This document shows, in pieces, positions 35,301 through 61,084 of a stretch of 64,000 nt of DNA. Below the pieces are notes generated by a model. The model ran no database searches, was not told the origin of the DNA, and saw only the letters and a list, made by a program, of their open reading frames with translations. This DNA is from a virus. The stretch is taken from positions 1 through 64,000 of the IMG/VR virus record IMGVR_UViG_3300047552_001072; one strand, given 5' to 3'. Each line of letters starts with the position of its first letter. Position 1 is the first letter of the stretch. The translations under genes were made by a program, and so were the position numbers.

Positions 35301-38300
35301 AATTCATGAGTATACTGCAAAATTAATTGAAAAAGGTTTAGGTAAATTTAAAAGAAGAATAACTGATGAAGATGGTAAGCTATCTTTAACTAAGTTATCT
35401 AAATATATATTTGAAGCAATGTCTGGAAAAGGTAATGAACGTTATCAAGAACTTCTTGGTGAAGGTGTTTCATTCCAAGCTCCTTATATTGTTAATAAAG
35501 CATTAACACAAATAGCTGCAGACGTAACTAAATCTTCTGTAGGATTCAGATTACCTGGTGAAAAGCTTATTTTACAAACAGACTTTGGTATTGAAGTAAA
35601 TAAAAAGAATAAAGCTCTTAGAGAAAAATTAAAGTTTAACCAAAGTGAAGATAAAGGTCACTTAGAAGCTGAAGTAATTTTCCCTGAAGGAGTTTTACCA
35701 AGAGAAGTAGAAGACTCTATTAAAGAGATGCTTAAAACTGGAAAGAGATTCTTCACCACTTCTGATATGTTAGGTTTCCGTATTCCTTCTACAGAGTTAC
35801 ACTCTGCTGTAGCAATTAAGATTGCAGGATTCTATGACTCTCGAGGTACAAATGCTATTATCGCACCTAAAGAACTTGTAGTATTACATGGATCTGACTT
35901 TGACGTTGACTCCTTGTTTATGCTTGTTAGATCTTTCTATAAACCAGAAGAAGCAGAATTATTTGGGTACGAGGCAAGTTCACCAATAGGCTATGAGTTA
36001 GTTAATAAAGAATATCATCCAATAGCTAAGGATAAATTTGAAAAGATCATATCTGAATTAAAAGAACAATATAAAGAGGATAAAAAGAAATTAAAGCTTA
36101 TAGATAAAGTAGAAGATAAATATTATACCAATGTTATTACTCAAGGTTTTATAGATATGATTCTTAAACCTGAGAATAGATCTCGTATGGTCGAACCTAT
36201 TAGTATGGAAATATTTAATGGTGATGGTGAAGATACTATGTTTACTATGTTAAAAGATCTTCAACAAAGACGTTATAAACATATTCATGGTGATAAAGCT
36301 ACCAAAGAAGGAATAGAAGAAGCAGGTGAGGTACAACAAAGACCTGATTTAAGTAATCCTTCAGGTAATTATAAAGTATTTAAGTCGTCTATGGACGGAG
36401 CTGCACTTGTAGGTGTATTTGCTAATGGTTTTAAATCATTAGCTTATATGTTAAACTCTGGTGATTATGGTAATAATACTGTAGCAGTTAAAAAAGAACT
36501 TAAGAAATTAAAAGAAGCTAAAAAAGTACAGGAGACTTTACTGTCAAATGTTAATGAAGAACTTCGTAAACTTGACCCTAGTACTAATCCTGAATCGGTT
36601 AAACAACGTGAGAAAAAACGTGACGAGTTATTAAGTATTCTTAAAGAAACTGAAAGAACTATAGAAGAACTTACTGCTAAATCTAAAACTTCTAAAGATG
36701 AAAAATCAACTACTCCTTTCTTAAATGTACCCGCTATTAAATTAGGTGGTAAGATATTTGATAGAATTAGAGAATTTGAAGTAGGTAAAGACGGGTGGCC
36801 AGTATGGAGAACACTAGATGCTTTAGTTAACTCAGCGATAGATAACGTTAAAGAACAAATTCTTCCAACTATTAATGCCTCTGGATTAACCTCTAATGCT
36901 TATGTAGCTTTAATAGGACTTGGTGTTCCTTTAAGAACAACTGTACTATTAATGAGACAACCTGCAATAGAACAAATGAGTTCTACTGGATTTAAGACTT
37001 CTGAAATCAATAAGAAAAAAGAAGCTTTAGAAGAAATGTTTAAAGCTATTTCTCAAGAAGATTTAGAATTATTACCTATATATGCTCAACAAGAACAATT
37101 AACAGATCTTGATTTAGAAGATGCTTTTATAAAAGATTTAATCGATTTTAGAGCATACGATAATGGTGATATGGATAAAGCATTTAAAGATGTTATTGAT
37201 CCTGAACATTCTATTGTAAGACAGTACGCAATATTATTAGAAGTAGAAAAAGCTATGAATATTGGAGAAGATATTTCTACAATGAGTTCTGCTTTAAATA
37301 TCATTAGACAATTTCCAAGTAATAAAGCAGACATGTCTACTACCCAAGAAAAATGGGAAGAGATGTTTGATTTTAAGGAAGACGAAGTAAAAATGAGAGA
37401 TTCATTCTCTTTTGATATTCCTGCATTGTTTAATAATAATCCACACATTAAATTAGCATATGAAGCATTTAAGTACTTGGTAGATTCTATTGAAACAATG
37501 TTTCTTAAACACGATAAGGCTTTAACTAAATTAGCTACTGAAATAGTTAAGACTTCTAATATGTCTATTGGTACTAAGAATGAAACAATAGAAACAGTTA
37601 AAAGTGACTTTGTTAAATTTATAGCTTCTGGTATTCCATTAATGGAAAAAATTAATTTAAGATTAACTAAAGAATATAGAACTGCTACAGGAGTAAAAGA
37701 TTATACTACTGGAGCTGAAGCTTGGTCACAAGCATTCTTAGATAAGTTAGAAGATGTTAAATTATTTTTAAAAGCACATAACATTTCTAATGGATTTATA
37801 GAAAATATTGCTATTAGACCAGGAAGATTTGATACAAGGTACGCACAATTTACTGCAGGTAATAATTTGAAGTTAGAAGATTTCTTATTATTCCAAGAGG
37901 ATTTTGTAAAATTAAATAGAGTAAATATAGATGATAAAGGTAATATTACATATAGTTATACGCCTAATGTTGGTTATACAGAATTTCAACAAGACTTTGT
38001 AAGATATGCAATCTTAAACTTTGGTTTACAATTTGGATCTACAAACTATTCTACTTCTTTACCTCCAGATATTGTTAAACCTTATATGGATGAGTTAGAT
38101 GCAGAATTAAAAGAAGCATTAACTAAATTAGATGTATATAAAGAATTATTTGAAGTTCAAGAGGTAATTGAAAGAGGTAATAATGTTGGAGAAACTCGTA
38201 AGAAACCAACAAGAGTTGAAGTAGCTCAAGGTACTTGGAGAAGTGCAGCATATGATAAAGCTTATGGTATATATTATAATTTAAGATTTGATCTTAAAGG

Positions 38301-41300
38301 TAAAGACACTATGGGTGACTTCTTAAAATTTGGTAAGAATGTATTTAAGAAAATAAAAATAGCTGTAGAATCTGACGAGCAATCTAACTTTCCTGTATTC
38401 TATACTAAGATAGGTACTTTAAAAAGAAGAATAGGATTATTCTTTAGAAAAGAGTTAGCAGAGAAATACTCTACTGCATTAGCTTTTGATAGTTCAATAT
38501 TATCTAGAGCAGTAGCTGATCCTGACAATACAACTAAAGTATCTATTTCTGATAACTACTATAATGATATTAAGACAAAAGACGAACATGGTACTGGGTC
38601 TATCATAATGCTATATCCTACAAATGATGGAGCAAGAATGTATAGAAAGTATTATATGGTAACTAAGAAATTAACTGATCCTAAAGTTAATGAGTATGGT
38701 ATTAATGAAATGGAATTCGAGATAACTCCATTAGAAAATAAAGATTATGAACAATACATTGACTCTAAAGGAGAAGATTATAAATTAGTTAAAAAAGTAT
38801 CTAAGGTAGAATTAAATTATAAAGGTACTAAATCTTCTATTACAACTGCAGATAGAAATAAATTCTTATCTCTTGAGAATGTATTAAAAGATATACAAGT
38901 TAATGGATCTACTGCAGGTAAATTAATGGCTAATTTATTCTTAAGTCCAGAATTCTCTTCAGCTGTAAAAGGATTAACAGTTAGAACTATTAATGTAAAA
39001 GAGACTGATAAAGGAAATGTAATTGGACATTGGGTTAATAATTATCCTAAAGAAATTTCTATTGCTGTGCAATACCCAGATGGAACAAGAGTTTCACCAG
39101 AAATAATTGAATCAACTATAATACATGAATTAACTCATGCTTTAACTTGGTTTAATTTACATACTCCTGATAATAAATTATCAAGAGATCAAGTAAGAGC
39201 TAAAGCTAACTTACATAAACTATTCAAAGTAGCTTCAGAAGCTATGAAGAAAAAATATAAAGATGAGTTTAAAGCTGGTGCAGGTAAATTCTATGGATTT
39301 ACAAATATTGATGAATTTGTTGCAGAAACATTTAGTAATCCTGAGTTCCAGGCTGAATTAGATTCATTTAAAATTGATACAGGTAAGAAATATTCTTTAT
39401 TAACTAAATTTGTAGAGTTCTTCAAAAGATTGCTAGGAGTTGTAGAAAATGATTCTTTACTATCACAGGTATTAAATAACTCATTCTACTTAATAGATAA
39501 TCCTATTAATAAAGGTTCTGTAGTTATAGATACTAATGAGATATTCTATAAGATAGGTAATTCTAAACCTGCAGAAGTTTCTGGAATAACTAAGAATGTA
39601 CTAGAACAAAGTAAGTATATAAATGTAGCTACAGACTCTAATGGAGAACAATTAGACCATTATATTTATTCTATTACAAACAAAGCTTGGAATCGTGTAA
39701 CTGATAACTATACTGGATTTATTTCTAAGTTTGTTAGTACTACTCCTAAGGAAAAGGGATTAACTAGTTCTCAATTAAAAGCTGAAGGAGTATTTAAAGG
39801 TGTACCTAAAGGAACAGCTATTCCAATTGATGGTATTAAAAAAGATCTTACTAAAGAAGAATATATACAATATTTAGATGACTTAAATGCTGTAGGTATT
39901 GCTAAAGGTAAAGTAATGCATAAGTGGCTAGAGTTATTATCTTGGAATAAATACTCTAATAAATCTAAAGAAGATTTAGAAGATGAGTTAGAGGAAGCTT
40001 TAGAGAATGCTCCTGTACCAGATGCTGAAACATCTTATGGATGGATTGAACAAGTTTATGATAAGTTATTAGATAAACTTCAATTAAACTCACATAAGGA
40101 TAATGTGCCAGAGGATCAAAAAGATAAAATATTCTCTGAGGTAACTATAGGTAGTCCACTACTTAAATACGCAGGTACTATGGATATGTTAGTAGAGCAT
40201 AGTGATGGATCTTACTCTATCATAGATTGGAAGACTGGTAGAAGTATTGAAAAAGAAACACATGATGTTCTTATGAAATACGGTAATCAGTTTAATCATA
40301 TGTTTGCTGATCCTAAAACCAAGAACCAATTGCAGGTAATGTTTTATGCATTCATGATGAAAGTAGAAAATCCAGATGCAATTTTTAGAAATTTAGATAT
40401 CATGTGGATTCCTAATAAGTATGAGGCTTTAGCATATGATCCTTATAATAAAGCAAATCATGCTAATTTCTTACGTATGATTGAGCAATACTATAAGTCT
40501 GAAGAACCTAGAATATATGAACAAATACTAGAGAAAAGTCCTAACGCATTTAATCCTAAACATTATAATGCAACAGACCCTACTTTAGCTGGTAGAATGT
40601 TAGCTGAGAATAAAACAGCTGAACAAGTTATTATAGCAACTCAAAATGAATTAAAATGGAAAATCCAAGCTAAATTGGATAAAAGATTATTAACTCATGA
40701 TGATATGCAAGAGATTAAGAAATTAACCCTTGAACTAGTTGCATTTGCTAAACAAGAAGGATATAATATTCAAAACTGGTCAGATGATATCTCTTATGGT
40801 TCTAGATGGTTTGGTATTAATGCAGATGTTAATCATCCTATTGTTAACTTATACCAAGCTAGATTAAATGAAGGATTAGATAAAGCTAATTCTGAGTTTA
40901 CTAGAGATATGGCTAAGTTTAATAGATTAGTTAAAAAAATATCAGAAGATTACGTAGCTAGTAAAATGCCTGGTAAAGGATTCTTACGTAAAGCAACACT
41001 TAAAAAATATGATCCGTTGACTAATGAATTATATGAACCATTCTATACAACATTTACAGAAGATGGTGTAACTTTGGAGAGATTCTTACATAAAAATGAG
41101 AAAGATCCTGAAAAGAAAAAAGCTTATGAGGCTTTAACAAAGAATCAAAAAGAGTTTATAGATTTTGTTAATGAAAGATTTGCATCACCATTTAAAGGAG
41201 ACTCAGCATTCTTAAATAGAACTGCAGTTAAAGATAAACCTAATATGGTTGGTGGTATTGAGATGGGAGTTAAGAATTATTCTGACTTAGAGTTATTTAA

Positions 41301-49098: not shown

Positions 49099-50664
49099 TT
49101 AGTATAATTCTTCTGTAAAAGAAGTAGAATCATTCTTAAACTCTTCCATAGCATTGTTTACATGCTCAGAGTTTACAGAAGTTCTACCATTTAAAGCTCT
49201 ATGTACAGCTTTTACATTATCATTTTTGTTCTTATCTCTAATAATATTCATATAACGTATGATACTATCAGTTACTTCTTTGTAAATATCCAACACTTTA
49301 GTTGGAGCATCTTCTCCAAAATTATCATATAACTGGCATATTACATCAGTTAATTTGATTTTATCCTTTCCTTCCAAAATTTTCTTAGAATACACATCTG
49401 CATAACGTACAATGGTATTACAAATTAATAACCACATAAGAGTTTTGTGGAAGTTAACTGTAGGACCATGTAGTCTAAATTCAACGGTACCACTAGAAAA
49501 GAAATAATTAACCAAATTCATGGCATAGTAACGAGTAGGACAATCCCACTGTCTATTCCATGGAGTGTATTTAGTTTGCTTATATATTTTTGGATTATTT
49601 TTTTTGTCTGGTTTTGCTCCACAAGTAATAAACGAGAATATCTCATTATAATGTCTCATAAGCTCTTTTTCATATTCTTCCTTACTCTTAGCTTTATACA
49701 AACTATTATCACCAATTCCTAAGTCAATTAATCTCTCTGAGTATTCTTTTTGTTTACCCATAATAGCTTGTTCATGACGTTTATAGAAAGGAACAAGATT
49801 AAATAATTCATCCTGAAGTCTATAAAATAATTGGTACAAGGCAAGGATAAACTCTTTTCTTTTAGGTAAAGATCCAATATGTACATGCATAGCACAAGAA
49901 TGGTCAACTCTACATTGACTCATTAATCTTTTGCATACTTTCTTCAAAGATTCTAAACCTTTAGCACCTTTTAGAATAACTGTAGCATACTCGTACTGAT
50001 CTCTACTACTTAGGGAGCCATCAACAACAGGAACAATACCACCAGGACCCAAAAAGCTTGTTTGTAAAGTTCCTTGACTAGTTTCAAATTCAACTCCAAA
50101 AGTAAGGTTACCTAATAATCTGGCAATGGTTCTTGACCTGAATGTACTCTTATATTTTGTTTCTTCGTAGATTTTTTGTATATCTACAAAAGCTTTATTG
50201 GCATCATCTGCATGATGCGTAGTTCTAATGTTGATTGCAAAAGTTCTTATAGAAGCTAACTTAGATAAAAATTCAGCAGGCTCTTTAGTTGGATGATAGA
50301 AATAATTACTTGATTTAGACGGCAAATATCCTAAAGAATATGCAATATCTTCATTCATAATAAATAATTCTTCATCTTCTTTCTTTTTTACAGCCGAAAT
50401 GACTTGAACTGTCTTAAAATTGTTAAATAACATAGTACCTCGTTCTCCTTGAGAATTTATGATTCCGTATCTAACATTTTTAGAATTTTCATATTTTTGT
50501 GTTTCATCACAAAAGAGCACTTCTTCTCCAATAATAAAAGGTTGATCTTCTATATAAACTATAGCACCTTTTACTGCATTCTTTTCTTTGATTTTAACTT
50601 TAGGTAAGTTAGTTATAACTAACCTACCGTAAATTATGTCTGTTTTTAAATAGGTTCCACTCAT
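49099..50664 (-). CDS. Putative amidoligase (glutamine synthetase-like COOH-NH2 ligase, Amidoligase_2 type)
   Basis: FGVEFET, DGSL, YEYAT, CAMHVHIG, RYYAMN and TVEFRLHGPT motifs in the expected order. Confidence 0.8.
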   Translation of the reverse strand: MSGTYLKTDIIYGRLVITNLPKVKIKEKNAVKGAIVYIEDQPFIIGEEVLFCDETQKYENSKNVRYGIINSQGERGTMLFNNFKTVQVISAVKKKEDEELFIMNEDIAYSLGYLPSKSSNYFYHPTKEPAEFLSKLASIRTFAINIRTTHHADDANKAFVDIQKIYEETKYKSTFRSRTIARLLGNLTFGVEFETSQGTLQTSFLGPGGIVPVVDGSLSSRDQYEYATVILKGAKGLESLKKVCKRLMSQCRVDHSCAMHVHIGSLPKRKEFILALYQLFYRLQDELFNLVPFYKRHEQAIMGKQKEYSERLIDLGIGDNSLYKAKSKEEYEKELMRHYNEIFSFITCGAKPDKKNNPKIYKQTKYTPWNRQWDCPTRYYAMNLVNYFFSSGTVEFRLHGPTVNFHKTLMWLLICNTIVRYADVYSKKILEGKDKIKLTDVICQLYDNFGEDAPTKVLDIYKEVTDSIIRYMNIIRDKNKNDNVKAVHRALNGRTSVNSEHVNNAMEEFKNDSTSFTEELY

Positions 50665-52583
50665 TACTTAATGAAGAAAGCTTTTATTTTAGATGTTTCC
50701 TCATCTTCTAATTCCTCTATGTTAATAGAAGAACATGTATCACATCTCTCTAAATGATTTTGAGTTGTTACTGATCCACAATCATCACAAACTACAATAT
50801 ATTCTTTATCCTTAAAATCTTCTTGCTCTTCTTCTAAATATCTATTTATCTCGTCAATGTTATCAAGAACTTTTTGGAAAGCATTAGTACTGCATTTGTC
50901 ATCACACATAGGACAATCACTTACAACAGTTCCTTTACATTTTAGACAATATTTTATATTATCAAAAGTAGCATAGGTTTCTTTAAAATGTTCTGTTCTT
51001 TCTTTAGTTAATACCTCAACTATCATTGACTCTTTAAAGATATATCCTCTGTTTACATAAGGCCAAATAACTAATCCATCTATTGGATCAGAATGGTTTA
51101 AAAGAGTAGTTGGTTTTATAAAAGTAAGGCAATCTTTTTTATCTTCTTTTCTGTTAAATAATCCTGACCAAATAGGAAAATTAGTAGAACTACGAAGTAT
51201 TGTACCAGATACTGAACCTTCGTTTTTTATTTCGAAGATGTGTAAATCTTTTAAAGATCTTATGTTATTAATAAGTATTCCGCGATAGAAGTATAATTCT
51301 TTTGTTGCAACATTTACTGCAGGAGTCATATCTTCTACATCATAATAAGCATGCTTATCTTCTGATATAAAAATACCTCTTCCAGTTGTGTCAAAAGTAG
51401 TTATTCTATCCACTATTTCTACATCATTATAAGTAGATTTTTCTACACTGACATTTTCTCTAAGTTTTACTTTAGTATGTGCAATGTTACCATTATAATA
51501 ATATAGTCCTTTACTAAAAACTAGCCTACCCTCTTGAATACTTCTAAACAACTCTTGTTGACTTAAACCATCAGAATTTAGAACTCCAGCGGAAAGAGTT
51601 TTAATTGTTTCTAATTCACTTTTTTTTATTTCGCTTGCTGAGCTGCCTACGCATCCGCTTCTGTTCTTTTTTGATAATCTATTATAAAAGTCTGAATCTT
51701 CTTCATGACCCAAGTATCTTGGAGCTGGTAAAGAAAATGAGTTAGTACTTTTAGTAGGATTTCTATCTACTTTGATAACTTCTACTATTTCTCCATCTTC
51801 TATTACAGTAATAGCATCCATAGCAAAATGATACGAATCAATCGTATTACTTTCTAGATATTTCTTTCTGTTAGGAAGAGTTAAAAATGCCTCGTCTAAA
51901 GGTTTATGTTCAGAAGAAATGTATATTCCTGCCTTAGTTTGTACATAGTGTAAAGGTCTTTCAGGAGTATTAACTTTTGAGTAAGTTTCTTTTCCTGCCC
52001 ATACATAAACCTTGTTTGGTTCTTCTTTTATGTGCCATACCAAAGCTGCGCTACCCCTGTACATAGAAAGGAATTCTAAAGTTTCCTTTTCTCCTTGTGC
52101 AAAAATATTGAAGATAAGTACTGAGTCTGATGACCCATAGTCGAGAGACAATCCAAAATGTCTTTCTATTTCTGTTTCGTTAGTAATTGTTCCGTTATGA
52201 ACTCCAATCACAGTTCGAGTAGGATTTTCTTCACTATTTTTTGCTATAATTGGGTGGGCATCAGATAATGTAACACCTCCACGAGAAGAAGATCTTGAGT
52301 GACCAATTACTATACATGGATTATAAAATTTTGGTTTTTTGCCTGCCCAAAATTTTCCTTCTTTTTCATAATGTTTATGAAAAGAAGATATATCAGTTCC
52401 TTTACCATCTACATTTTTAGCCCCTCTATGTACATATAGTAGTCTCTGATTATTTTCTCGTGTGGTATAAAAGACTCCAAAGTTATCTTTTCCTCTGGAG
52501 TCTTGTGCTAATAGTAGATAATTAAGAATTATTTCATTAAAAATTTCTCCTTTCTTACCTATAAAACCTGCGATTCCGCACAT
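50664..52583 (-). CDS. Class II (Ntn) glutamine amidotransferase with C-terminal Zn-ribbon-like extension
   Basis: MCGIAG N-terminal nucleophile, RGKD.FG, GHSR, AHP, HNGTI, SDS and ERPL motifs. C-terminal CxxC pairs (CLKC, CPMC, CDDC, CDTC). Confidence 0.88.
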   Translation of the reverse strand: MCGIAGFIGKKGEIFNEIILNYLLLAQDSRGKDNFGVFYTTRENNQRLLYVHRGAKNVDGKGTDISSFHKHYEKEGKFWAGKKPKFYNPCIVIGHSRSSSRGGVTLSDAHPIIAKNSEENPTRTVIGVHNGTITNETEIERHFGLSLDYGSSDSVLIFNIFAQGEKETLEFLSMYRGSAALVWHIKEEPNKVYVWAGKETYSKVNTPERPLHYVQTKAGIYISSEHKPLDEAFLTLPNRKKYLESNTIDSYHFAMDAITVIEDGEIVEVIKVDRNPTKSTNSFSLPAPRYLGHEEDSDFYNRLSKKNRSGCVGSSASEIKKSELETIKTLSAGVLNSDGLSQQELFRSIQEGRLVFSKGLYYYNGNIAHTKVKLRENVSVEKSTYNDVEIVDRITTFDTTGRGIFISEDKHAYYDVEDMTPAVNVATKELYFYRGILINNIRSLKDLHIFEIKNEGSVSGTILRSSTNFPIWSGLFNRKEDKKDCLTFIKPTTLLNHSDPIDGLVIWPYVNRGYIFKESMIVEVLTKERTEHFKETYATFDNIKYCLKCKGTVVSDCPMCDDKCSTNAFQKVLDNIDEINRYLEEEQEDFKDKEYIVVCDDCGSVTTQNHLERCDTCSSINIEELEDEETSKIKAFFIK

Positions 52584-52592
52584 AGTTTATTA

Positions 52593-53558
52593 TTAAATTT
52601 CTTTTCTCTTTTCTAAAATCATCTGTCTAAATGCTTTTTTCCATCTACTGAAAGATAAAACAGCATTTTCATCTCCCATTGATGGGGCAGTATTTATTTC
52701 TAGAATTGTCCAAGATCCAGATTCAGAATCCCACAACATATCTACAGCACCAAAATCAAGATTACAAGCCATACAAGCATCTAAGGCTAAACTAACAGCT
52801 TTGTCAACAGAACAAGATTTTCCTTTACGTGAAAATGTTCTTTCGAAATTTGCAGTAAAGTAGCTATTTCCCAAGGCAATATTTCTTCCAAAACTACCTG
52901 CATCTACAGCCTCTTGTTTCATTAATTTTCTTAGTACTATAATTTCTCCTTTGTAATTTATTTCTGAGACACCATTACTTTGAGGAGGATAATCAACTCT
53001 TTTCATCAAAAGCAGAGGAGACACTGACACACGATACTCGTAAGATTTGCTCATATCTGGTTGAAATACTTCTTCAATGAAATAAGTATTTAATTCTTCA
53101 GATTTTTTAGAAGAAATAAAAGTTGCCAATTCCTTAATATCGTTGATTACTGTCATTCCTTTTCCACCACTACCATAAATAAGTTTTGCAACACAAGGAA
53201 AGGCCAGTCTGAAGTTTTGAACTCCTGCAGCGCTTAATTTCAATTCTGCAAACATTTGGTACTTCGGTGTAGGCAAACCAGCATCAACTAAGAACTGTTT
53301 ACATCTTACTTTATTTGATGCATTTTTAATTACATCAGGGTGATTTAAGATTACCCCACCATCTTTACGAACTAAGGCTACTTTTTCATAGCAGTTTTCT
53401 GTTCTACTACCTAAATTGATTAGAGTTTTATATGGAAATTTTCCTATAGGAAATCTTTCTTCTGGCTTCTCTTTATCTTTTTGAATTCGGAACTTATCTG
53501 CTGATGGGTTCTTGCTGATTACGTGAGGAGAAAATTGTTCGTTTAATTCAGTACTCAT
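52593..53558 (-). CDS. ATP-grasp ligase (RimK/GshB-like)
   Basis: NASNK, GLPTP, FPCVAK..GSGGKGM, FIEE, EYRV, DFGAVD and ILEINTAPS motifs. Confidence 0.85.
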   Translation of the reverse strand: MSTELNEQFSPHVISKNPSADKFRIQKDKEKPEERFPIGKFPYKTLINLGSRTENCYEKVALVRKDGGVILNHPDVIKNASNKVRCKQFLVDAGLPTPKYQMFAELKLSAAGVQNFRLAFPCVAKLIYGSGGKGMTVINDIKELATFISSKKSEELNTYFIEEVFQPDMSKSYEYRVSVSPLLLMKRVDYPPQSNGVSEINYKGEIIVLRKLMKQEAVDAGSFGRNIALGNSYFTANFERTFSRKGKSCSVDKAVSLALDACMACNLDFGAVDMLWDSESGSWTILEINTAPSMGDENAVLSFSRWKKAFRQMILEKRKEI

Positions 53559-54148
53559 TATTCAGTTATTTTTTCTTGTTCAACCTCTTCTTTAAAATAA
53601 TACTCATACGCTTTTGGAGCCTCTTGTTTTAGTCTTTCTTTCAAATCACTTGAGTATGTTTTGTAAACATTACCTACATAATCTCCCTTAGGATTTTTTG
53701 CTGCTTTTTGTTCAGCACTTGACCAAGGTGCTTCATAGAATTTAGCAATGATTGGCCCATCTTCTAGATTAATTCTAACTGCACAAGCTCTATATGCATC
53801 ATATTTTACTCCTTCAAGAGCATCTGTCTCTGCATTAATTCTATCAAATTCATCTGTTACTTGAAATAAATCAAATACAGTAACGTGACTTGTATCTCCT
53901 GTAAATTCACAAGAAATTCCACGACTTTTTAGAAATCCAGGAAGTTCTAATGTAGCGATATGTTTTGTTCTTTTATTGAAACACCATGCCCAATTACCCA
54001 TTCCAAGTCTTAATGTTCCATACACTAAGAAATAATTAGTTAAAAAGCTTTCTCCACTTTTCATTCTCAATATTCCTACTCTCTCCAATTCTTGTTTTTG
54101 ATCCTTTGTAAGATCAGAAAAGTTCAATAGTTTTTGCATTTTCTTCAA
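53558..54148 (-). CDS. Gamma-glutamylcyclotransferase (AIG2/GGCT-like)
   Basis: LVYGTLRLG.GN signature, DALEG (catalytic Glu), Y.R. Confidence 0.8.
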   Translation of the reverse strand: MKKMQKLLNFSDLTKDQKQELERVGILRMKSGESFLTNYFLVYGTLRLGMGNWAWCFNKRTKHIATLELPGFLKSRGISCEFTGDTSHVTVFDLFQVTDEFDRINAETDALEGVKYDAYRACAVRINLEDGPIIAKFYEAPWSSAEQKAAKNPKGDYVGNVYKTYSSDLKERLKQEAPKAYEYYFKEEVEQEKITE

Positions 54149-55055
54149 AGATTAATCTAAAATCAATTACTTTTTCTACTCCTTTTGTAGCAGTAATTTG
54201 TTCATTAATTATAGATGTTAGAAAAAATTTTTTACTTGATGTAAGTTCGTCTGGATCTGGGTAAGTAATGACTAAATGCTTTTCATCGTTAACCAGATTT
54301 TTAATTATTTCATTAGGCCTTTCTTGAAAAGATAAAAATATTAAATTATCTAATTTATCTGAAATATTATGAATAACCATTTCAGTAAAATCTTTCCAAG
54401 TATTTCTGTGTGCCTGTATCATATCTCGTCTACCAGTAGATAATGTTGGTATAACATTCATAAGTAATACACCTTGAGAAGCTAAATGTTCAAGAGGATA
54501 TTGCCATGAAGAATTTGGACTATACCACTCAATATCTAATTTTTCTCTCTCTGAGTCAATCTCTTGGAGAGTCTTGAAATATTCAGCAGCAGAATATGAA
54601 TCTAATTCTATTTCTTCACTGCTTTTTAAATTTCTTGCTTCGTCTAATAATCTAGTAAGATACCTGTATTTTTTATTATACAAATCTGAACATACTCCGT
54701 GAAATTCACAGTATCTTATATGACTTATAAAATGATTTACTTCAGTAGGTAAAGCTAGTCCTCTTCTATAACTCATTCCTAAGCCATTATTTGCGTCTGA
54801 TTGATCTATGTCTGGCATGTCAGTCAGTATTACCATCTTAAGATGCGGAGGCCCAAATAAATCAAATGGTGCAAATATATTATTGTATTCTGGAGTAACA
54901 TTAGGATAAAGTTTTAATGCTTCAAATATCTTATACATCTCCTTAGAGGAAAGATAATTGTAAAAGAAGTCAAACCAATTTCTTAGTAATAACTTACCAT
55001 AAACTCTATCCCAAAGCAACTCTTTTACTTTATTTTCTGCTTGTTTGTTCATCAA
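54114..55055 (-). CDS. Uracil-DNA glycosylase family 1-like protein, catalytically degenerate
   Basis: Scaffold motifs retained (VTP..NNIFAPF, KMVIL, GLGMS, LEHLASQGVLLMN, H..TW..FT..VI..IS, LIFL, HLVI), but GQDPY is replaced by TDMPD and HPSP by DPDE. Confidence 0.7.
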   Translation of the reverse strand: MMNKQAENKVKELLWDRVYGKLLLRNWFDFFYNYLSSKEMYKIFEALKLYPNVTPEYNNIFAPFDLFGPPHLKMVILTDMPDIDQSDANNGLGMSYRRGLALPTEVNHFISHIRYCEFHGVCSDLYNKKYRYLTRLLDEARNLKSSEEIELDSYSAAEYFKTLQEIDSEREKLDIEWYSPNSSWQYPLEHLASQGVLLMNVIPTLSTGRRDMIQAHRNTWKDFTEMVIHNISDKLDNLIFLSFQERPNEIIKNLVNDEKHLVITYPDPDELTSSKKFFLTSIINEQITATKGVEKVIDFRLIFEENAKTIELF

Positions 55056-56016
55056 GCATTTGTTTTAATTTTTCTAACCCATTCTCTCTAACAAAATCAG
55101 AAGGATCTTTTGATTTGTCATCTATTACTTTTAATTTAATTACATCAGGAATTAATTTTAAAATCATCTCTGCGTAATTTTCTCCTGCTGAATCGTTATC
55201 GTATAATATATACTTTCTTTTATATCTCCCCATTATATCTAGTACTCGGTTGTTTGGACGAGCTCCTTCAGAATTTAAAGCAATAGCCTCGTATCCTAAT
55301 AACCCTAGTACCATAATATCTTTCAAAGAAGAGGTTAAGATAATAGAGTCTGACTCATATCTTAATTGATCTTCTCCGTGAATATCATCTCTATTAGAAT
55401 TTCCTATCCACTTGTTTTTCTTAAATCTAGTTAATGGACGATATATTTTTATATGATCTGACTTAGGAAAGTGATACCCAAAGATTGGATCTTCACCTAA
55501 ATAAGTAGCATACAATTGTTTATCTATCCATACTTCTCGTATAGAGAATATATTAAATCTTTTTAACTCCTTTTCAGTAATTAAGAATTTGCTCCAGTAC
55601 TGGAGGTCTTCTTTAGTATACTTTTGTATTTTTACCTGAATTAGCTTTTCCTTACGTTTTTTAGTTGTAGTATCTTTAACTTTAACAGGTTCTTGTGAAT
55701 CTTTAAGATTCAAATTAAAGTCATTATTAAGCATTATTAATGCTTCTTTAAATGACATATTATATAATGAACAAACAAAATCAAAACAGTCTCCAGACTT
55801 TCCTGTAGAAAAATCATGAAACTTTAATTTTGAGTTTCCCTCAAAAAATACAAAAGAAGGATTCCTATCTTCTCTAAAAGGAGAGTTGTACTTCCTGCCT
55901 AGTACTATTTGTTGTCCAAAGTACTTTTCAAAAATAGAAAGGGGAGACACCCTTTCAAGTATCTCCCTCTTATCTAGATTCTTTTCTTCGTAATTCTTAG
56001 AATGGTAAATCATCAT
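55030..56016 (-). CDS. dnaG: DNA primase (DnaG-like, crAss type)
   Basis: SPFREDRNPSF, DFSTG.SGDCFDFV, KIYRPL, KW..N, and TOPRIM ILTSSLKD...YDNDSAG...KDPSD. Start uncertain (56016 or 56013 preferred; the ORF track uses 56055). Confidence 0.85.
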   Translation of the reverse strand: MMIYHSKNYEEKNLDKREILERVSPLSIFEKYFGQQIVLGRKYNSPFREDRNPSFVFFEGNSKLKFHDFSTGKSGDCFDFVCSLYNMSFKEALIMLNNDFNLNLKDSQEPVKVKDTTTKKRKEKLIQVKIQKYTKEDLQYWSKFLITEKELKRFNIFSIREVWIDKQLYATYLGEDPIFGYHFPKSDHIKIYRPLTRFKKNKWIGNSNRDDIHGEDQLRYESDSIILTSSLKDIMVLGLLGYEAIALNSEGARPNNRVLDIMGRYKRKYILYDNDSAGENYAEMILKLIPDVIKLKVIDDKSKDPSDFVRENGLEKLKQMLDEQTSRK

Positions 56017-56608
56017 CCTCTGCATTGATAGTTCCGCTTCCTTTAGGAGCTTCATTTATTTTTGCTGGAGTACAACGATTTTCCAATTCCCACGCAGACA
56101 TTTTAATTCTACACTCCTGTCCCTCAACTTGTTTTTGAATATAGTTAGGAAAAGTAGGAAATTGAGTAAATACACCATCTTTATCATAAATTACTTTAAG
56201 ATAAACTGGTTGATTTTTAAAGTTTGTTTTCTCAATTCTTGCTTTCGCAATTGAACAAAATTCTCCAAATGAATTAGCATTGATCTCGGCATCTTTCTCA
56301 GATACAAAAGTTTTCAATATTTTCACTACATGAGATAACTTACTTTTAATCTCTCTTTCCAATGCTTGTTCAGGAGTTTCTCCATCAAATGGTTTTGGAT
56401 TCGGATTAGGAAACCAAATTCTTTGATTCATAAAGGTATTATCCTCTTTTTTAACAAAAATAAATTCCATGTAATCTACATTAGCCTTTGTTTTTGCAAT
56501 TTCAATTGATTCTAAGTTACAATTTGAGTGAATTCCAACTCCCATTTTGCTTCTTTTTGTAGAATCTTCTATAAGATCATTAACTGATTTAGTATTATAA
56601 ATACTCAT
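55997..56608 (-). CDS. ssb: Single-stranded DNA-binding protein (putative)
   Basis: Ends in an acidic DDDLPF tail, has a beta-rich N-terminus, and lies between the recombinase-like ATPase and primase. Confidence 0.7.
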   Translation of the reverse strand: MSIYNTKSVNDLIEDSTKRSKMGVGIHSNCNLESIEIAKTKANVDYMEFIFVKKEDNTFMNQRIWFPNPNPKPFDGETPEQALEREIKSKLSHVVKILKTFVSEKDAEINANSFGEFCSIAKARIEKTNFKNQPVYLKVIYDKDGVFTQFPTFPNYIQKQVEGQECRIKMSAWELENRCTPAKINEAPKGSGTINAEDDDLPF

Positions 56609-56644
56609 TTTTTAAAAATTTTTTAAAAATTATAAAATTATAAA

Positions 56645-57514
56645 TTATCTAGGTCTGTTTCTGAGGAATTCCTCAAATCTATCTCTATTTGTAACTGCTT
56701 CTGTATTTAAAACTTCTCTAACTCCTGGATTTAATACTTCAACAGCATCAGGTTCATTCTCAGGTAAATCATCTATGATATCAGAAAAACTAGGAGGAAT
56801 AGTAAAACTTGCTGCTACTTTTTCTTTTGAGTATCCTTTATCAATCATTTGATTAGGTGGTAACATAATCTTATGACCAAAAGTAAATGAAAGTCTATCT
56901 GATTTTACTACTGTAGGAGTTTTACTTACTTCCATAGATATTTCTTCTATTTCAGTATTTCTTATTACTCCTGATTCAAATAAAACTTCATCAATTACTT
57001 TTGAATACTCTGGATCCAAAAGAATAGCGCCAGTTTCTGTAATAGAAAATGGAATATCTGTTTCTTCTTCTGAAATAACTGCAAGTAAAAATAATCCTCT
57101 ACTTTCAATTAATCTGAGTCTTGTGATTGCAATAGCTTCAGGATCAATACTAAGTAAATCCAATACATTTGGACTTAGGTAATATCTACCTTTCTTTTTG
57201 TTCAATTCTATCTTTCCTTTTACTCTCATACAGAATTCTACTGGAAAAGTATATCTATATAAAGAATTTGCTCCTCCTGTTGGTAATAGTACAGCATCTG
57301 CAGAATTTATTTTTACATCTGCTCCTAAAAACTTATGAGACATCTTTTCTTCCATAGAAAGATTACAGATATTACTATCAAATCCTACTACAGTACATAA
57401 TAAAACTCTAGGATCTCGTATATCCTTAACTCTTAAAATTGTCCCTGCTGGTAATCCATTGTTAGTAGCTTTCTCCAATAATATTTGAATACTAGCTAAA
57501 ATTCGATCTAACAT
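56645..57514 (-). CDS. Hypothetical protein
   Basis: 289-aa ORF coupled (1-nt overlap) to the ATPase gene. Confidence 0.55.
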   Translation of the reverse strand: MLDRILASIQILLEKATNNGLPAGTILRVKDIRDPRVLLCTVVGFDSNICNLSMEEKMSHKFLGADVKINSADAVLLPTGGANSLYRYTFPVEFCMRVKGKIELNKKKGRYYLSPNVLDLLSIDPEAIAITRLRLIESRGLFLLAVISEEETDIPFSITETGAILLDPEYSKVIDEVLFESGVIRNTEIEEISMEVSKTPTVVKSDRLSFTFGHKIMLPPNQMIDKGYSKEKVAASFTIPPSFSDIIDDLPENEPDAVEVLNPGVREVLNTEAVTNRDRFEEFLRNRPR

Positions 57515-58221
57515 TAATTATTGTTTTTAAAAATTTCATCTGGTTCTTTAGAGTGTTCAAACTCATCAATTCTCTTAATTACATAACCAAGATCATTAGG
57601 AATTTTTCTCTCAAAACATCCAAAAGGAGACCTTGCTGTCGTAGTTCCATCACTTTGAGTAATGAAATAATACTCAGGTTTCCCTTCATTAAACTCAATT
57701 TCAGTGTATAAAGTATATGTTAGTTTACCTTCTACATTTAAATTGGTTAATTTTGCTCCTCCACTTTTCATGCGATGTTTTACCACATGATTATCCTTCC
57801 ACTCTTCTGTATGACCCAAGAACACTATGTACAAGTCTTCTCTTAATACTTCAGATTGAGTTAATTTGAATAACTCATAAATGTCTGCAGCATAGTCAAT
57901 CCATTTATCATAAGCTTTTTTCTTAATCTCTGCCATCTCTTTATCACTCATAATAGAAGAAATAGTATCAATTAAGATTACTTTAACATGTGGTGCCTTA
58001 TCACTAATTACTTGAATATATTTTGCAATATCCAAAGCATTAGAAGACACAATGTAATTTTTATTTTCAGCATTATACACCTCTCTCCAACCTTTAAACG
58101 GCATACTCTTTTTGTCAGAGTTGATGTAAACCGTAGATTTTGGATTTAAAGTTCCAGCTGAAAAAGTTTTACCTGAACCACAAGGACCCAGTACTAAGAT
58201 ACCTACTGCCATATAAGACAA
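57514..58221 (-). CDS. AAA_24/Sak4-like P-loop ATPase (ssDNA-annealing recombinase)
   Basis: GPCGSGKT Walker A, ILIDTIS Walker B, FLGH, TARSP.G and IPNDL motifs. Near SSB. Start is TTG 58221 or ATG 58212. Confidence 0.75.
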   Translation of the reverse strand: MSYMAVGILVLGPCGSGKTFSAGTLNPKSTVYINSDKKSMPFKGWREVYNAENKNYIVSSNALDIAKYIQVISDKAPHVKVILIDTISSIMSDKEMAEIKKKAYDKWIDYAADIYELFKLTQSEVLREDLYIVFLGHTEEWKDNHVVKHRMKSGGAKLTNLNVEGKLTYTLYTEIEFNEGKPEYYFITQSDGTTTARSPFGCFERKIPNDLGYVIKRIDEFEHSKEPDEIFKNNN

Positions 58222-58225
58222 ATTT

Positions 58226-59047
58226 TTAAACAGTTACTAAATTTAATTTATAATCTTTAATCAACATCTCCACAATCTCCATATCACGGCCATCAATAGC
58301 CATTTTTACTTTGCGGAAATCAATAGGTTCATTGCTATTAAAGTGTTCTGCAGCTCTTTGAACAGAATCCCATACCCAAGCAATTAATTTAGGTTCGAAT
58401 ACCCAGAAATTTGATAATACACGATACTCACAGCCATAAGGCTTATAACGGAAAGAACCAGATTTGCCGTACAATTTTCTACGTTCTACGTCTTTATCTA
58501 GTACTAGGGAAGGGACACCAAGATACAAGTCCAGTAATTTAATGAATTTTCTCATCAATAATTTAGGCATATCTTTACCTCCCTCGATACCAATATGAAC
58601 ATGGCCTCCACAAGTACGGAAGTTAGTGGTTTTCGCAGAATCACTAATTTCATTTAATTTACCTGTGTAAGCATCAACATCAGGATCACATCCAAAGGTA
58701 CGTGCTTGTTCAGTATCAAGATACTTAGGATCAAAGTAAGCTGAGGCAGCTTTACTCAAGGATAATTCATACTCTTTTGGAAATGCTTTTGGCAAGTACT
58801 CTATACTATTTGTAATATTATTTACAAACATTTCTTTGCTAGTACAAGGTGCAGTTGTAATTTCTACTGCAACGTTATCTTCTTGAATCGATAGTCCTTC
58901 TATTCCTGATTCTTTTAAAGGTTTTGGAACCTCTTTTGTTCCTCCAATAATTCCACAAGATGGGTAGAATATACCATCACGAGTAATAAAGAACTCAGGA
59001 TCAGACCCTAAGCTTAAAATGTTGATTTTAAAATCTTTTTTTTCCAT
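58226..59047 (-). CDS. phiEco32-like COOH-NH2 ligase type 2
   Basis: LGSDPEFF, GGTKE.P, EDNVAVE, FGCDPD, RTCGGHVHIG and RRKLYGKSG.FR.KPYG.EYRVLSNFW motifs. Confidence 0.88.
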   Translation of the reverse strand: MEKKDFKINILSLGSDPEFFITRDGIFYPSCGIIGGTKEVPKPLKESGIEGLSIQEDNVAVEITTAPCTSKEMFVNNITNSIEYLPKAFPKEYELSLSKAASAYFDPKYLDTEQARTFGCDPDVDAYTGKLNEISDSAKTTNFRTCGGHVHIGIEGGKDMPKLLMRKFIKLLDLYLGVPSLVLDKDVERRKLYGKSGSFRYKPYGCEYRVLSNFWVFEPKLIAWVWDSVQRAAEHFNSNEPIDFRKVKMAIDGRDMEIVEMLIKDYKLNLVTV

Positions 59048-60099
59048 TAGATTTCTAGAAATTTCATGCTTCTGATTACCTCATCTAGTTTTCCTTCCTT
59101 ATCTTTTTTGTTAAAGTAAAGTACTATTTGATCACCATATAGTACATTATCATTATCCAATGGTATTCCTTCAATGTGATCTTTCTTTATCTCTACCATT
59201 TTCTTCCACATAAAATCAGAAATATTAGCACTGAACATTTTGTTAAATTCCTCTCTGGTAATCTTTTTTGAGATTATAGGAACACTAACAATTTGTGTCC
59301 AAACTGCGTTAAGATTTTTACCTTGAACATAATCATTATGAAGGCTAGAATAAGATTTTATGCCACACAATTCTGTAACATTAGAATAAGATATTTCTTC
59401 TCCATCATCATCCTCTTCAAAGCTATCACAATCATTTTGTCTAAATATGTTGGGAACTACATAAAATCCATAGTATGGATCATATGCTTTACCTGCACCA
59501 AACATGTGTCCTGCCCAAAACAACTCAAGAGGCCTCAATTTTGGATACTTATTCGCCAATTCAACAGTCTTCATGTAAATTGAATTACTTAAAGGACTAT
59601 AAAAATAACGAATAAATGAAAGTGTTCCTAATCCATGTTTAGGAGAGACTAAATCTCTAGTATCCCAACTAACAACAAAACAATCTGTAATGTTTTTAGT
59701 CCATGAAGGAAGATTTTTTAAGTTCTTTTCTTTATAGAAGTTTGTGGGAGTAAATACTCCTAAAAACTCTGTTCTAATTCCAATAGTTTTTCCAAATTGT
59801 ATCCAAGCTTTTAAATCTTCTTGAATTTTACTTACTTCTTCTTTTGTTGGATTATCATTTTTCTTTCCCCAAAAGTCAGTTGGGATAAACATGAAAGCAA
59901 TGTCCTCAGCTATAATATTAGAAGAGGAATAAGTACTATCCTGACTACATCCAGCCTCTCTTCTCGTTCTGGAATGTCCAGAATACACATTGTTTCTAAA
60001 TTGAATGATATCAAAATTCCCATTGTTGGAATTTATCATCTTATCATTAATACTTTTGTATTCTTTCGATATTGGTTTAATCTTAGTTTGATTCATCAA
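59047..60099 (-). CDS. Hypothetical protein coupled to COOH-NH2 ligase
   Basis: 350-aa ORF whose stop overlaps the ligase start (TAATG). Confidence 0.6.
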   Translation of the reverse strand: MMNQTKIKPISKEYKSINDKMINSNNGNFDIIQFRNNVYSGHSRTRREAGCSQDSTYSSSNIIAEDIAFMFIPTDFWGKKNDNPTKEEVSKIQEDLKAWIQFGKTIGIRTEFLGVFTPTNFYKEKNLKNLPSWTKNITDCFVVSWDTRDLVSPKHGLGTLSFIRYFYSPLSNSIYMKTVELANKYPKLRPLELFWAGHMFGAGKAYDPYYGFYVVPNIFRQNDCDSFEEDDDGEEISYSNVTELCGIKSYSSLHNDYVQGKNLNAVWTQIVSVPIISKKITREEFNKMFSANISDFMWKKMVEIKKDHIEGIPLDNDNVLYGDQIVLYFNKKDKEGKLDEVIRSMKFLEI

Positions 60100-61084
60100 T
60101 AGACGAATTTTTAAAGTTATCCAACATCATAAGTACTTTTGGTATACCAGTTCTTTGTTTTAATAAATGAAAATATATCATTGCCTGAGTCTTATCCTTA
60201 GGATTCCATACAGGAAATCCCTTTGGATAATCTGGTAATGGCTTTCCATAATTAACCAAACCTAATAAGGCTGGTTTATGAATAACCAAAACATAATCAG
60301 AACACATAAATATATCACTTGATCCAAACAAATCATTTCGTGTAGGGAAATGTAAATCAGAATTTAAGATTCTCTCAGGAGTTTCTATATTTCTGTTTAA
60401 CTGAGACAACAATATTATAAGAATGGGAATACCCATTTTTATAAACTGCTTCTTTAAATCTACCATCGTACGATATAATATTGCAACTATATTCCTCTCG
60501 TCTTGTCCTGTCTTACCTTTTGTAAGAAGAACGTGATCAATTGTTATAATTAATCCCCTTTTTCTTTTTTGAATTTCTTGTTTGTCTACAAAAGATAAAA
60601 TTGTATTAACAATTTGTTCTATTGTACCTGTGTTCTCTACATTGTAAATAGGATATTTACGCATGGAATTAGCCGCTATTTCAGCAAATTTTAGATGTTT
60701 CTCCGAAATTTGTTCTTTTGATGAGAGTAAATCGGATACTGACATCTTAGTTTTACCAGAAATATTCCGTAAAACTTGCTCTGAACTTGGCATTTCAAAC
60801 TCAAAAGATAGTATATCAAACTCTTGTTCAGGGTTTAAATCTATTAACTCTCGTTTAAGCTGCTCACAATACGTTGATTTACCAGAACCTGACATAGCTG
60901 CAATAGTAAATATTCTATTCCATTCAATCCCGTTTAAGAGACTATTGTTAACCTTTTTAGATCCAGTTAATAAACTCTTAATCTCTCCCTCTCGCCTACC
61001 TTTTATATAGGCGAGAGCTGAGTTAATCGCAGAATTTATATGACTATATTCTAAAGTATTATTCGAAGACTGTTCTGTCATCAT
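60083..61084 (-). CDS. dnaB: Replicative DNA helicase (DnaB-like, C-terminal domain only)
   Basis: AAMSGSGKST (H1), FEFEMP (H1a), ITIDH (H2), LLSQLNR (H3), DLFGS..I...SD (H4), LKQRTG. Confidence 0.9.
   Translation of the reverse strand: MMTEQSSNNTLEYSHINSAINSALAYIKGRREGEIKSLLTGSKKVNNSLLNGIEWNRIFTIAAMSGSGKSTYCEQLKRELIDLNPEQEFDILSFEFEMPSSEQVLRNISGKTKMSVSDLLSSKEQISEKHLKFAEIAANSMRKYPIYNVENTGTIEQIVNTILSFVDKQEIQKRKRGLIITIDHVLLTKGKTGQDERNIVAILYRTMVDLKKQFIKMGIPILIILLSQLNRNIETPERILNSDLHFPTRNDLFGSSDIFMCSDYVLVIHKPALLGLVNYGKPLPDYPKGFPVWNPKDKTQAMIYFHLLKQRTGIPKVLMMLDNFKNSSIDESN

Follow-up and report, generated by a model that had tools for sequence, protein, structure and literature searches.

A set of enzymes predicted to make and break amide bonds lies among the replication genes of a distant crAss-like phage, in a window of 64,000 nt that comprises bases 1-64000 of the 76,953-bp IMG/VR viral record IMGVR_UViG_3300047552_001072 (CheckV completeness about 76%). 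Very probably this set is a dispersed copy of the amidoligase cassette of phiEco32-type phages, with amide or gamma-glutamyl-bond chemistry in a general sense. The genome encodes seven such enzymes: four ATP-dependent carboxylate-amine ligases (a type-2 COOH-NH2 ligase, two Amidoligase_2 proteins and a RimK-like ATP-grasp ligase), two enzymes of glutamine amidotransferase (GATase) type (class II, Ntn, and class I/peptidase C26) and one gamma-glutamyl cyclotransferase (GGCT)-like protein. An initial annotation of the window had counted five enzymes, three of them ligases. When the whole record was scanned with profiles of families associated with the cassette, two more came to light, a class I GATase of peptidase C26 type and a further amidoligase, whose genes overlap by 4 nt and lie past the window end (record 71141-73017). 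The seven genes form three blocks over about 24 kb, all on the replication-gene strand, and the blocks are separated by replisome genes and open reading frames (ORFs) without a named function.

The cassette itself has been known since its first description in 2009. What is new here is its presence in a distant crAss-like lineage, its scattered layout and a protein family linked to the COOH-NH2 ligase, represented by a 350-aa protein that we call p350. A 2017 paper (PMC5498523), with reference to Iyer et al. (2009) and to Hardies et al. (2013), terms the set a "peptidoglycan modification cassette" that is thought to block superinfection; according to a 2023 paper (PMC10580990), its function is still to be explored. 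Both thus offer only a conjecture on the cell wall and superinfection, in agreement with the statement of the initial annotation that no product is established. Our literature search found no paper reporting a product or tested function of the cassette, and none combining "Crassvirales" and "amidoligase".

The six genes annotated in the window match minus-strand ORFs exactly, and all five enzyme folds proposed there were confirmed with Pfam and PHROG profiles (Table 1). For the class II GATase, the fold is also supported by a structure model. Residues 1-278 form the glutaminase domain, which AlphaFold2 (AF2) predicted confidently from a 56-sequence alignment (pLDDT >90) and which matches the glutaminase domains of PurF and GlmS (Foldseek E 2e-12). 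The C-terminal part of about 360 aa (residues ~280-639; 50664-51750, minus strand) gave pLDDT <50 even with 56 sequences, and no recognisable fold emerged from this model. Two CxxC pairs are found at its end, and a CxxC...CxxC pattern is also present in the 56-sequence consensus. Cassette GATases typically have 400-500 aa, with lengths of 630-710 aa in phi14:2-type and a few other loci; an IMG/VR search with the window GATase returned no close relatives.

The amidoligase of the window has an N-terminal extension of about 200 aa and is 25-33% identical to the amidoligases of phages cr108_1, phi14:2 and Lbo-JY46. The ATP-grasp ligase is 26.5% identical to phi14:2 g038 over 98% of its length; among PDB sequences it comes closest to Ddl and biotin carboxylases, with weak E-values, and the database name "S6 glutaminyl transferase" is a label rather than a tested function. 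Of the five fold calls, that of the GGCT is the weakest: its Pfam score is 23.9 bits, with the cut-off at 22.8. A leave-one-out profile, built from the GGCTs of other cassettes without the window protein, scored 18 bits and aligned the YGTL motif and the catalytic glutamate of the LEG motif. The gene lies directly upstream of the ATP-grasp gene, as in phi14:2. Its listed start is a TTG and overlaps the 3' end of the UDG gene by 35 nt; given this overlap, the true start may be a downstream ATG.

The catalytic motifs had been described as intact, and this holds for all columns that are 100% conserved, with one exception: the GGCT of the window has a gap where its family alignment shows an invariant Gly. 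The COOH-NH2 ligase keeps 18 of 18 invariant columns of a 45-sequence alignment (G14, D16, E18, K38, D57, E62, G119, C120, R144, H149, H151, D173, R189, Y193, G194, R200, E207 and R209). In the amidoligase the fully conserved residues are E192, E194, D215, S217, E225, H260, H262, E395 and R397, and in the GATase they are G36, H95 and R97, accompanied by C2 and N130 (present in >90% of the other sequences). The ATP-grasp ligase keeps K83, E174, R176 and N289, as well as K211, D273 and E287 (98%), and thereby retains the E-x-N Mg site and the ATP-binding Lys. The GGCT keeps P70 and E112, together with the YGTL motif (90-95% conserved).

Table 1. Enzyme genes, the ligase-linked gene and neighbouring replication genes. 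Positions are those of the window unless preceded by L002.
Feature	Position	Strand	Match or remark
p350, 350 aa, small unnamed family	59047-60099	-	1-nt overlap with COOH-NH2 ligase gene
Type-2 COOH-NH2 ligase (phiEco32-like, PF14395), 273 aa	58226-59047	-	Pfam E 2e-11; phrog_3815 E 3e-68
GGCT-like (AIG2/GGACT), 196 aa	53558-54148	-	Pfam PF06094 E 6e-5; phrog_2520
ATP-grasp ligase (RimK-like), 321 aa	52593-53558	-	Pfam RimK E 7e-9; phrog_2599 E 7e-19
Class II (Ntn) GATase, 639 aa	50664-52583	-	Pfam GATase_6 E 4e-9; starts MCGIAG
Amidoligase_2 (glutamine-synthetase-fold ligase), 521 aa	49099-50664	-	Pfam PF12224 E 5e-12; phrog_2443 E 2e-16
Peptidase C26/class I GATase, 308 aa	L002:8091-9017	-	Pfam E 4e-21; GxCxG and HPE present
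Second Amidoligase_2, 317 aa	L002:7141-8094	-	E 1e-19
DnaB	60083-61084	-	first in listed minus-strand gene order
Sak4-like AAA_24 ATPase	57514-58221	-	directly after COOH-NH2 ligase in gene order
Two ORFs without named function	between Sak4 and primase	-	
Primase	55030-56055	-	
UDG homologue, 313 aa	54114-55055	-	matches phi14:2 g042, E 2e-9; no Pfam UDG match
Endonuclease, exonuclease, PD-(D/E)XK nuclease	after amidoligase in gene order	-	

The assignment to the cassette is carried by comparison with other phages. In phiEco32, an E. coli podophage whose cassette region spans gp77-gp88 (see also Duhaime et al. 2017), gp77-gp86 comprise GGCT, ATP-grasp ligase, class II GATase, Amidoligase_2 and PF14395 ligase in a contiguous arrangement beside primase and helicase. 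These proteins were recognised by the cassette profiles at E 1e-25 to 1e-77, which bears out the likeness to phiEco32-like phages pointed out in the initial annotation; the genome analysed here has a second amidoligase in addition. Phage phi14:2 (Crassvirales, Steigviridae; NC_021806) encodes the same five families in g037-g041 of its replication module, in the order primase, GGCT, ATP-grasp ligase, COOH-NH2 ligase, GATase (638 aa), amidoligase (515 aa) and UDG. The lengths of its GATase and amidoligase are unusual and similar to those found here. Whereas the COOH-NH2 ligase of phi14:2 lies inside the block, here it is located 4 kb upstream, past UDG, primase, two ORFs and Sak4. The UDG gene precedes the four-gene block here and follows the cassette in phi14:2 and in the gut crAss-like phage cr108_1 (NC_055878). 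Protein identity to the phi14:2 counterparts is only 26-30%, and the part of the phi14:2 genome that was inspected showed neither a p350 homologue nor a C26 enzyme nor a second amidoligase.

In cr108_1 and similar IMG/VR contigs of 75-110 kb, a cassette variant lies between primase and UDG. It consists of ATP-grasp ligase, C26/class I GATase, COOH-NH2 ligase, class II GATase and amidoligase, with two paralogous proteins of about 300-335 aa, and no GGCT was detected in it by profile. The initial annotation had placed the set outside the core of crAss-like genes. The comparison revises this, as the set is not unusual in that group: phi14:2, cr108_1 and many of the 75-110 kb contigs carry it in the same place in the replication module.

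A wider survey showed how regularly the families occur together. A COOH-NH2 ligase homologue was found in 315 of 50,697 phage records. We fetched 80 IMG/VR ligase loci, several of them cut by contig ends, and examined 84 sources with iterative profiles. The ligase was accompanied by a class II GATase in 82 of the 84 sources, by an amidoligase in 80 and by an ATP-grasp ligase in 73, so that the member genes do occur together across phages. C26 homologues, with 60 ORFs in the surveyed loci, are also regular cassette members. Contiguity of the cassette is usual, not universal, and the split layout is not unique to this phage: the ligase is separated from the other cassette genes also in loci L026, L036, L028, L044 and L048. 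In four loci (L012, L034, L042 and L048) the amidoligase is followed by a second class II GATase-like gene, giving the order GATase, amidoligase, GATase, and this second gene often adjoins DNA polymerase A or a helicase.

The host phage belongs to the Crassvirales as judged by its major capsid protein and genome layout, and the relationship is distant. The initial annotation had called it crAss-like, which is correct in this distant sense. The capsid protein is of crAss type (phrog_11589, E 2e-69) and aligns along 99% of its length, with 27% identity, to that of Flavobacterium phages of the FpV4 group; further matching records are from Bacteroides, Cellulophaga and Azobacteroides phages and from IAS virus. 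The phage has no close sequenced relative, since a Megablast search with the 11-kb region against the 50,697 phage records gave no match. Its structural arm opposes its replication arm: structural genes occupy bases 1-43266 on the plus strand, and a single minus-strand array with the replication genes extends from 43608 to the record end. A single ORF of 6647 aa at 23323-43266 on the plus strand makes up 31% of the window; the phi14:2 virion RNA polymerase, with roughly 2200 aa, is much shorter.

Along the minus strand the gene order is DnaB, p350, COOH-NH2 ligase, Sak4, two ORFs, primase, UDG, GGCT, ATP-grasp ligase, GATase, amidoligase and nucleases. The enzyme genes are therefore interleaved with the replisome, as had been noted for DnaB, Sak4, primase and UDG. 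The tight coupling described for the four-gene block and for the ligase-p350 pair is real, with 1-nt overlaps or gaps of ≤9 nt, and it is not specific to the enzyme genes because the replisome genes of the array are packed equally tightly. The strongest hairpin in the region resembles a terminator (55967-55942, minus strand; 11 pairs followed by a T-run). It is positioned just past the stop of a 203-aa ORF and falls within the 5' end of the primase ORF as listed. Given this position, the primase may start further downstream than listed, and the ligase block may be transcribed separately from the four-gene block.

The protein p350 belongs to a family with only 20 representatives among 1.8 billion proteins. 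Its three closest relatives are 41-43% identical and come from ENA/Logan, two of them from contigs of about 102 kb; direct searches of IMG/VR and JGI metagenomes returned nothing. Homologues are present in four of the 80 IMG/VR loci. The gene lies directly upstream of the ligase in L042 and L048 (with a 4-nt overlap in L048), directly downstream in L062 and three genes away in L044. Loci L042, L048 and L062, not L044, also contain a gene for DNA polymerase A, whose product shares only 31-36% identity with that of the window phage, which indicates that the p350-ligase gene pair survived deep divergence. Because of this retention, the likeliest role of p350 is that of a lineage-specific partner to the COOH-NH2 ligase.

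The nature of p350 was pursued with several tools. No match was obtained in Pfam or PHROG, Pfam searches with 25 family members and PDB profile searches were likewise empty, and the ESM Atlas placed it in no named family. An AF2 model from four sequences was poor (pLDDT 57), and Foldseek found nothing for it at E ≤0.001. The best VIA-align Z was 5.1, and the alignments with PafA, Dop and GshF were weak and long. Kinship with the ligase, amidoligase, ATP-grasp, GGCT, C26 and four other cassette families was rejected, with hhalign insignificant throughout, as was a "GC-x-x-D" motif common to p350 and the ligase, which spans only 14 columns at a probability of 0.6%. A predicted complex of ligase and p350 scored 0.00, which counts neither for nor against binding.

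In several lineages, a protein of about 300-400 aa is encoded directly upstream of the COOH-NH2 ligase (L003:6445-8364; L086:31130-33311; L029/L030). Examples are phiEco32 gp87/gp88, the two cr108_1-type paralogues and a 334-aa ORF in L029/L030. The phiEco32 proteins have no detectable relation to p350, the cr108_1-type paralogues gave an hhalign probability of 3% against it, which is not significant, and the family profile of p350 did not detect the L029/L030 ORF. The position upstream of the ligase looks like a variable "partner slot".

With regard to function, the enzymes would most likely act as one pathway in the cytoplasm of the infected cell. A hydrophobic, signal-like N-terminal segment was found in none of the cassette enzymes checked, i.e., all but the COOH-NH2 ligase. 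On an acceptor with a carboxylate or an amine, the ligases would form one amide or gamma-glutamyl bond after another at the expense of ATP, and the GATases would deliver glutamine ammonia to amidate a carboxylate or would hydrolyse gamma-glutamyl amides. The GGCT would take off a gamma-glutamyl group as 5-oxoproline, either in a deprotection step, like BtrG in the butirosin pathway, or as a true eraser. In the pairs PuuA/PuuD and BtrJ/BtrG, a ligase of glutamine-synthetase (GS) or ATP-grasp fold adds a gamma-glutamyl group and an enzyme of C26 or GGCT type removes it, which makes them the closest biochemical precedent for the pairings in the phage. A "write-and-erase" chemistry is therefore reasonable and plausible for the phage set as well, where removal could be biosynthetic deprotection rather than regulation. 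A role as steps of a pathway, in ammonia donation and deprotection, would suit the GATases and the GGCT just as well as one as erasers. PuuA/PuuD and BtrJ/BtrG belong to bacterial catabolic and antibiotic pathways with known substrates, and their likeness to the phage enzymes is one of fold families only.

The targets suggested in the initial annotation (host envelope, host proteins, phage nucleotides or DNA) are conjectural. For the acceptor, the published conjecture of a peptidoglycan stem-peptide precursor, or another envelope precursor, is a tentative possibility. Peptidoglycan enzymes are known in each family concerned: Ddl and D-Asp ligase among ATP-grasp enzymes, AsnB/LtsA, which amidates meso-diaminopimelate (mDAP), among class II GATases, and GatD with MurT for class I GATases. 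All host genera named in the tally of the 315 records are Gram-negative, which fits an envelope or mDAP-type peptidoglycan target. Another small metabolite containing Glu or an amine, e.g., a polyamine or the polyglutamate tail of a cofactor, is to be regarded as tentatively as the envelope. A protein acceptor seems unlikely, and a nucleotide or DNA acceptor more so.

Several observations weigh against a single pathway with an envelope target. The pathway idea comes from gene linkage, and for no member in any phage has a product, substrate or phenotype been measured. The division into three blocks, with the hairpin between the ligase block and the four-gene block, means that the genes need not be co-expressed. 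A GGCT was detected in only 22 of the 84 sources with a profile of low sensitivity, so its constancy in the cassette is not shown, and the C-terminal 360 aa of the GATase without a recognised fold could be an acceptor-binding part. Nothing that was computed separates peptidoglycan from the other targets. A link to peptidoglycan through a neighbouring hydrolase was considered and rejected. The gene downstream of the second amidoligase, separated from it by 19 nt (minus strand, L002:6519-7121, record 70519-71121), encodes a 200-aa protein with a hydrophobic N-terminus that the ESM Atlas groups with cell wall hydrolases of SleB/CwlJ type (score 0.92, TM 0.58-0.65). Pfam and PDB sequence searches with this protein gave no match, the Atlas is its only support, and no homologue is found near cassettes elsewhere; it is probably the endolysin.

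The same enzymes might instead serve to build or recycle a gamma-glutamyl amine or peptide, in the way that PuuA/PuuD handle putrescine, with glutathione-like peptides or polyglutamate tails of cofactors among the conceivable products, so that host nitrogen, polyamines or folate-type cofactors would be redirected during replication. This reading, which we consider doubtful, draws on the third block, where a GS-fold amidoligase is paired with a C26/class I GATase as in PuuA/PuuD, and on the fact that free gamma-glutamyl compounds are the normal substrates of GGCTs. Furthermore, the cassette adjoins the metabolic genes PncB and PrsA in Leptolyngbya phage Lbo-JY46. On the other hand, a simple salvage step would need fewer than four ligases, no transporter or other metabolic gene is linked to the set in this genome, and the cassette has never been tied to a metabolite.

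A reversible mark on proteins has somewhat less in its favour and is improbable. The RimK-like ATP-grasp and GS-fold ligases would add glutamate or peptide tails to a host or phage protein (replisome, ribosomal or defence), the C26 enzyme and the GGCT would trim them, and p350 would serve as adaptor or substrate. GGCT-type enzymes act on small gamma-glutamyl compounds or on epsilon-(gamma-glutamyl)-lysine, and to our knowledge polyglutamate tails are not among their substrates. RimK is the nearest family of the ATP-grasp ligase in both Pfam and PHROG, but the Pfam match is confined to the first 86 of the 188 positions in the profile and is uninformative on the substrate. Placement of the enzyme genes among replisome genes would suit such a role, as would an acidic disordered insert in p350, which stays beside the ligase. 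This insert is shared with the closest relatives of p350 and absent from more distant family members, and across the lineages surveyed no conserved substrate-like protein accompanies the cassette. For other phage ATP-grasp ligases, Aravind's group has proposed protein targets (PMC4431377).

Decoration of a base or of the nucleotide pool with an amino-acid-type group to evade restriction is quite improbable. It would explain why the genes are placed among primase, UDG, helicase and polymerase genes, as seen here, between primase and UDG in phi14:2 and cr108_1, and beside primase and helicase in phiEco32, and the UDG homologue that heads the four-gene block lacks a Pfam UDG match; however, most phage accessory genes sit in early or replication modules, which makes position weak evidence, no ThyA/ThyX homologue (a possible pyrimidine hydroxymethylase) was found in the 77-kb record, itself only about 76% complete, and the neighbours include no kinase, glycosylase-type transferase or other known base-hypermodification enzyme. 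It is a similarly long shot that p350 is an unrecognised dedicated subunit or substrate of the COOH-NH2 ligase in a crAss-like clade encoding DNA polymerase A, with a pathway target linked to replication and not to the cell wall. If so, the fact that cassette genes are repeatedly found scattered between those for helicase, Sak4, primase, UDG and polymerase would mean action on a target such as a replisome protein, a nucleotide or DNA.

A dispersed phiEco32-type cassette thus remains the reading we favour. On its own this copy adds little to the question of the product, but it confirms that the cassette belongs to a deep crAss-like lineage, and the fact that its genes are scattered in three blocks yet all intact argues for selection on the whole set. 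The one piece of new biology is p350, a small new family that stays beside the COOH-NH2 ligase. The cassette is among the most widespread phage enzyme sets without a known product, with carriers among gut crAss-like phages and among phages of E. coli, Pseudomonas, Vibrio, marine Bacteroidota and cyanobacteria. The product is best sought in the cultured carriers phi14:2 (Cellulophaga baltica), phiEco32 (E. coli) and LUZ24 (P. aeruginosa), and its identification would explain a conserved function of early infection.

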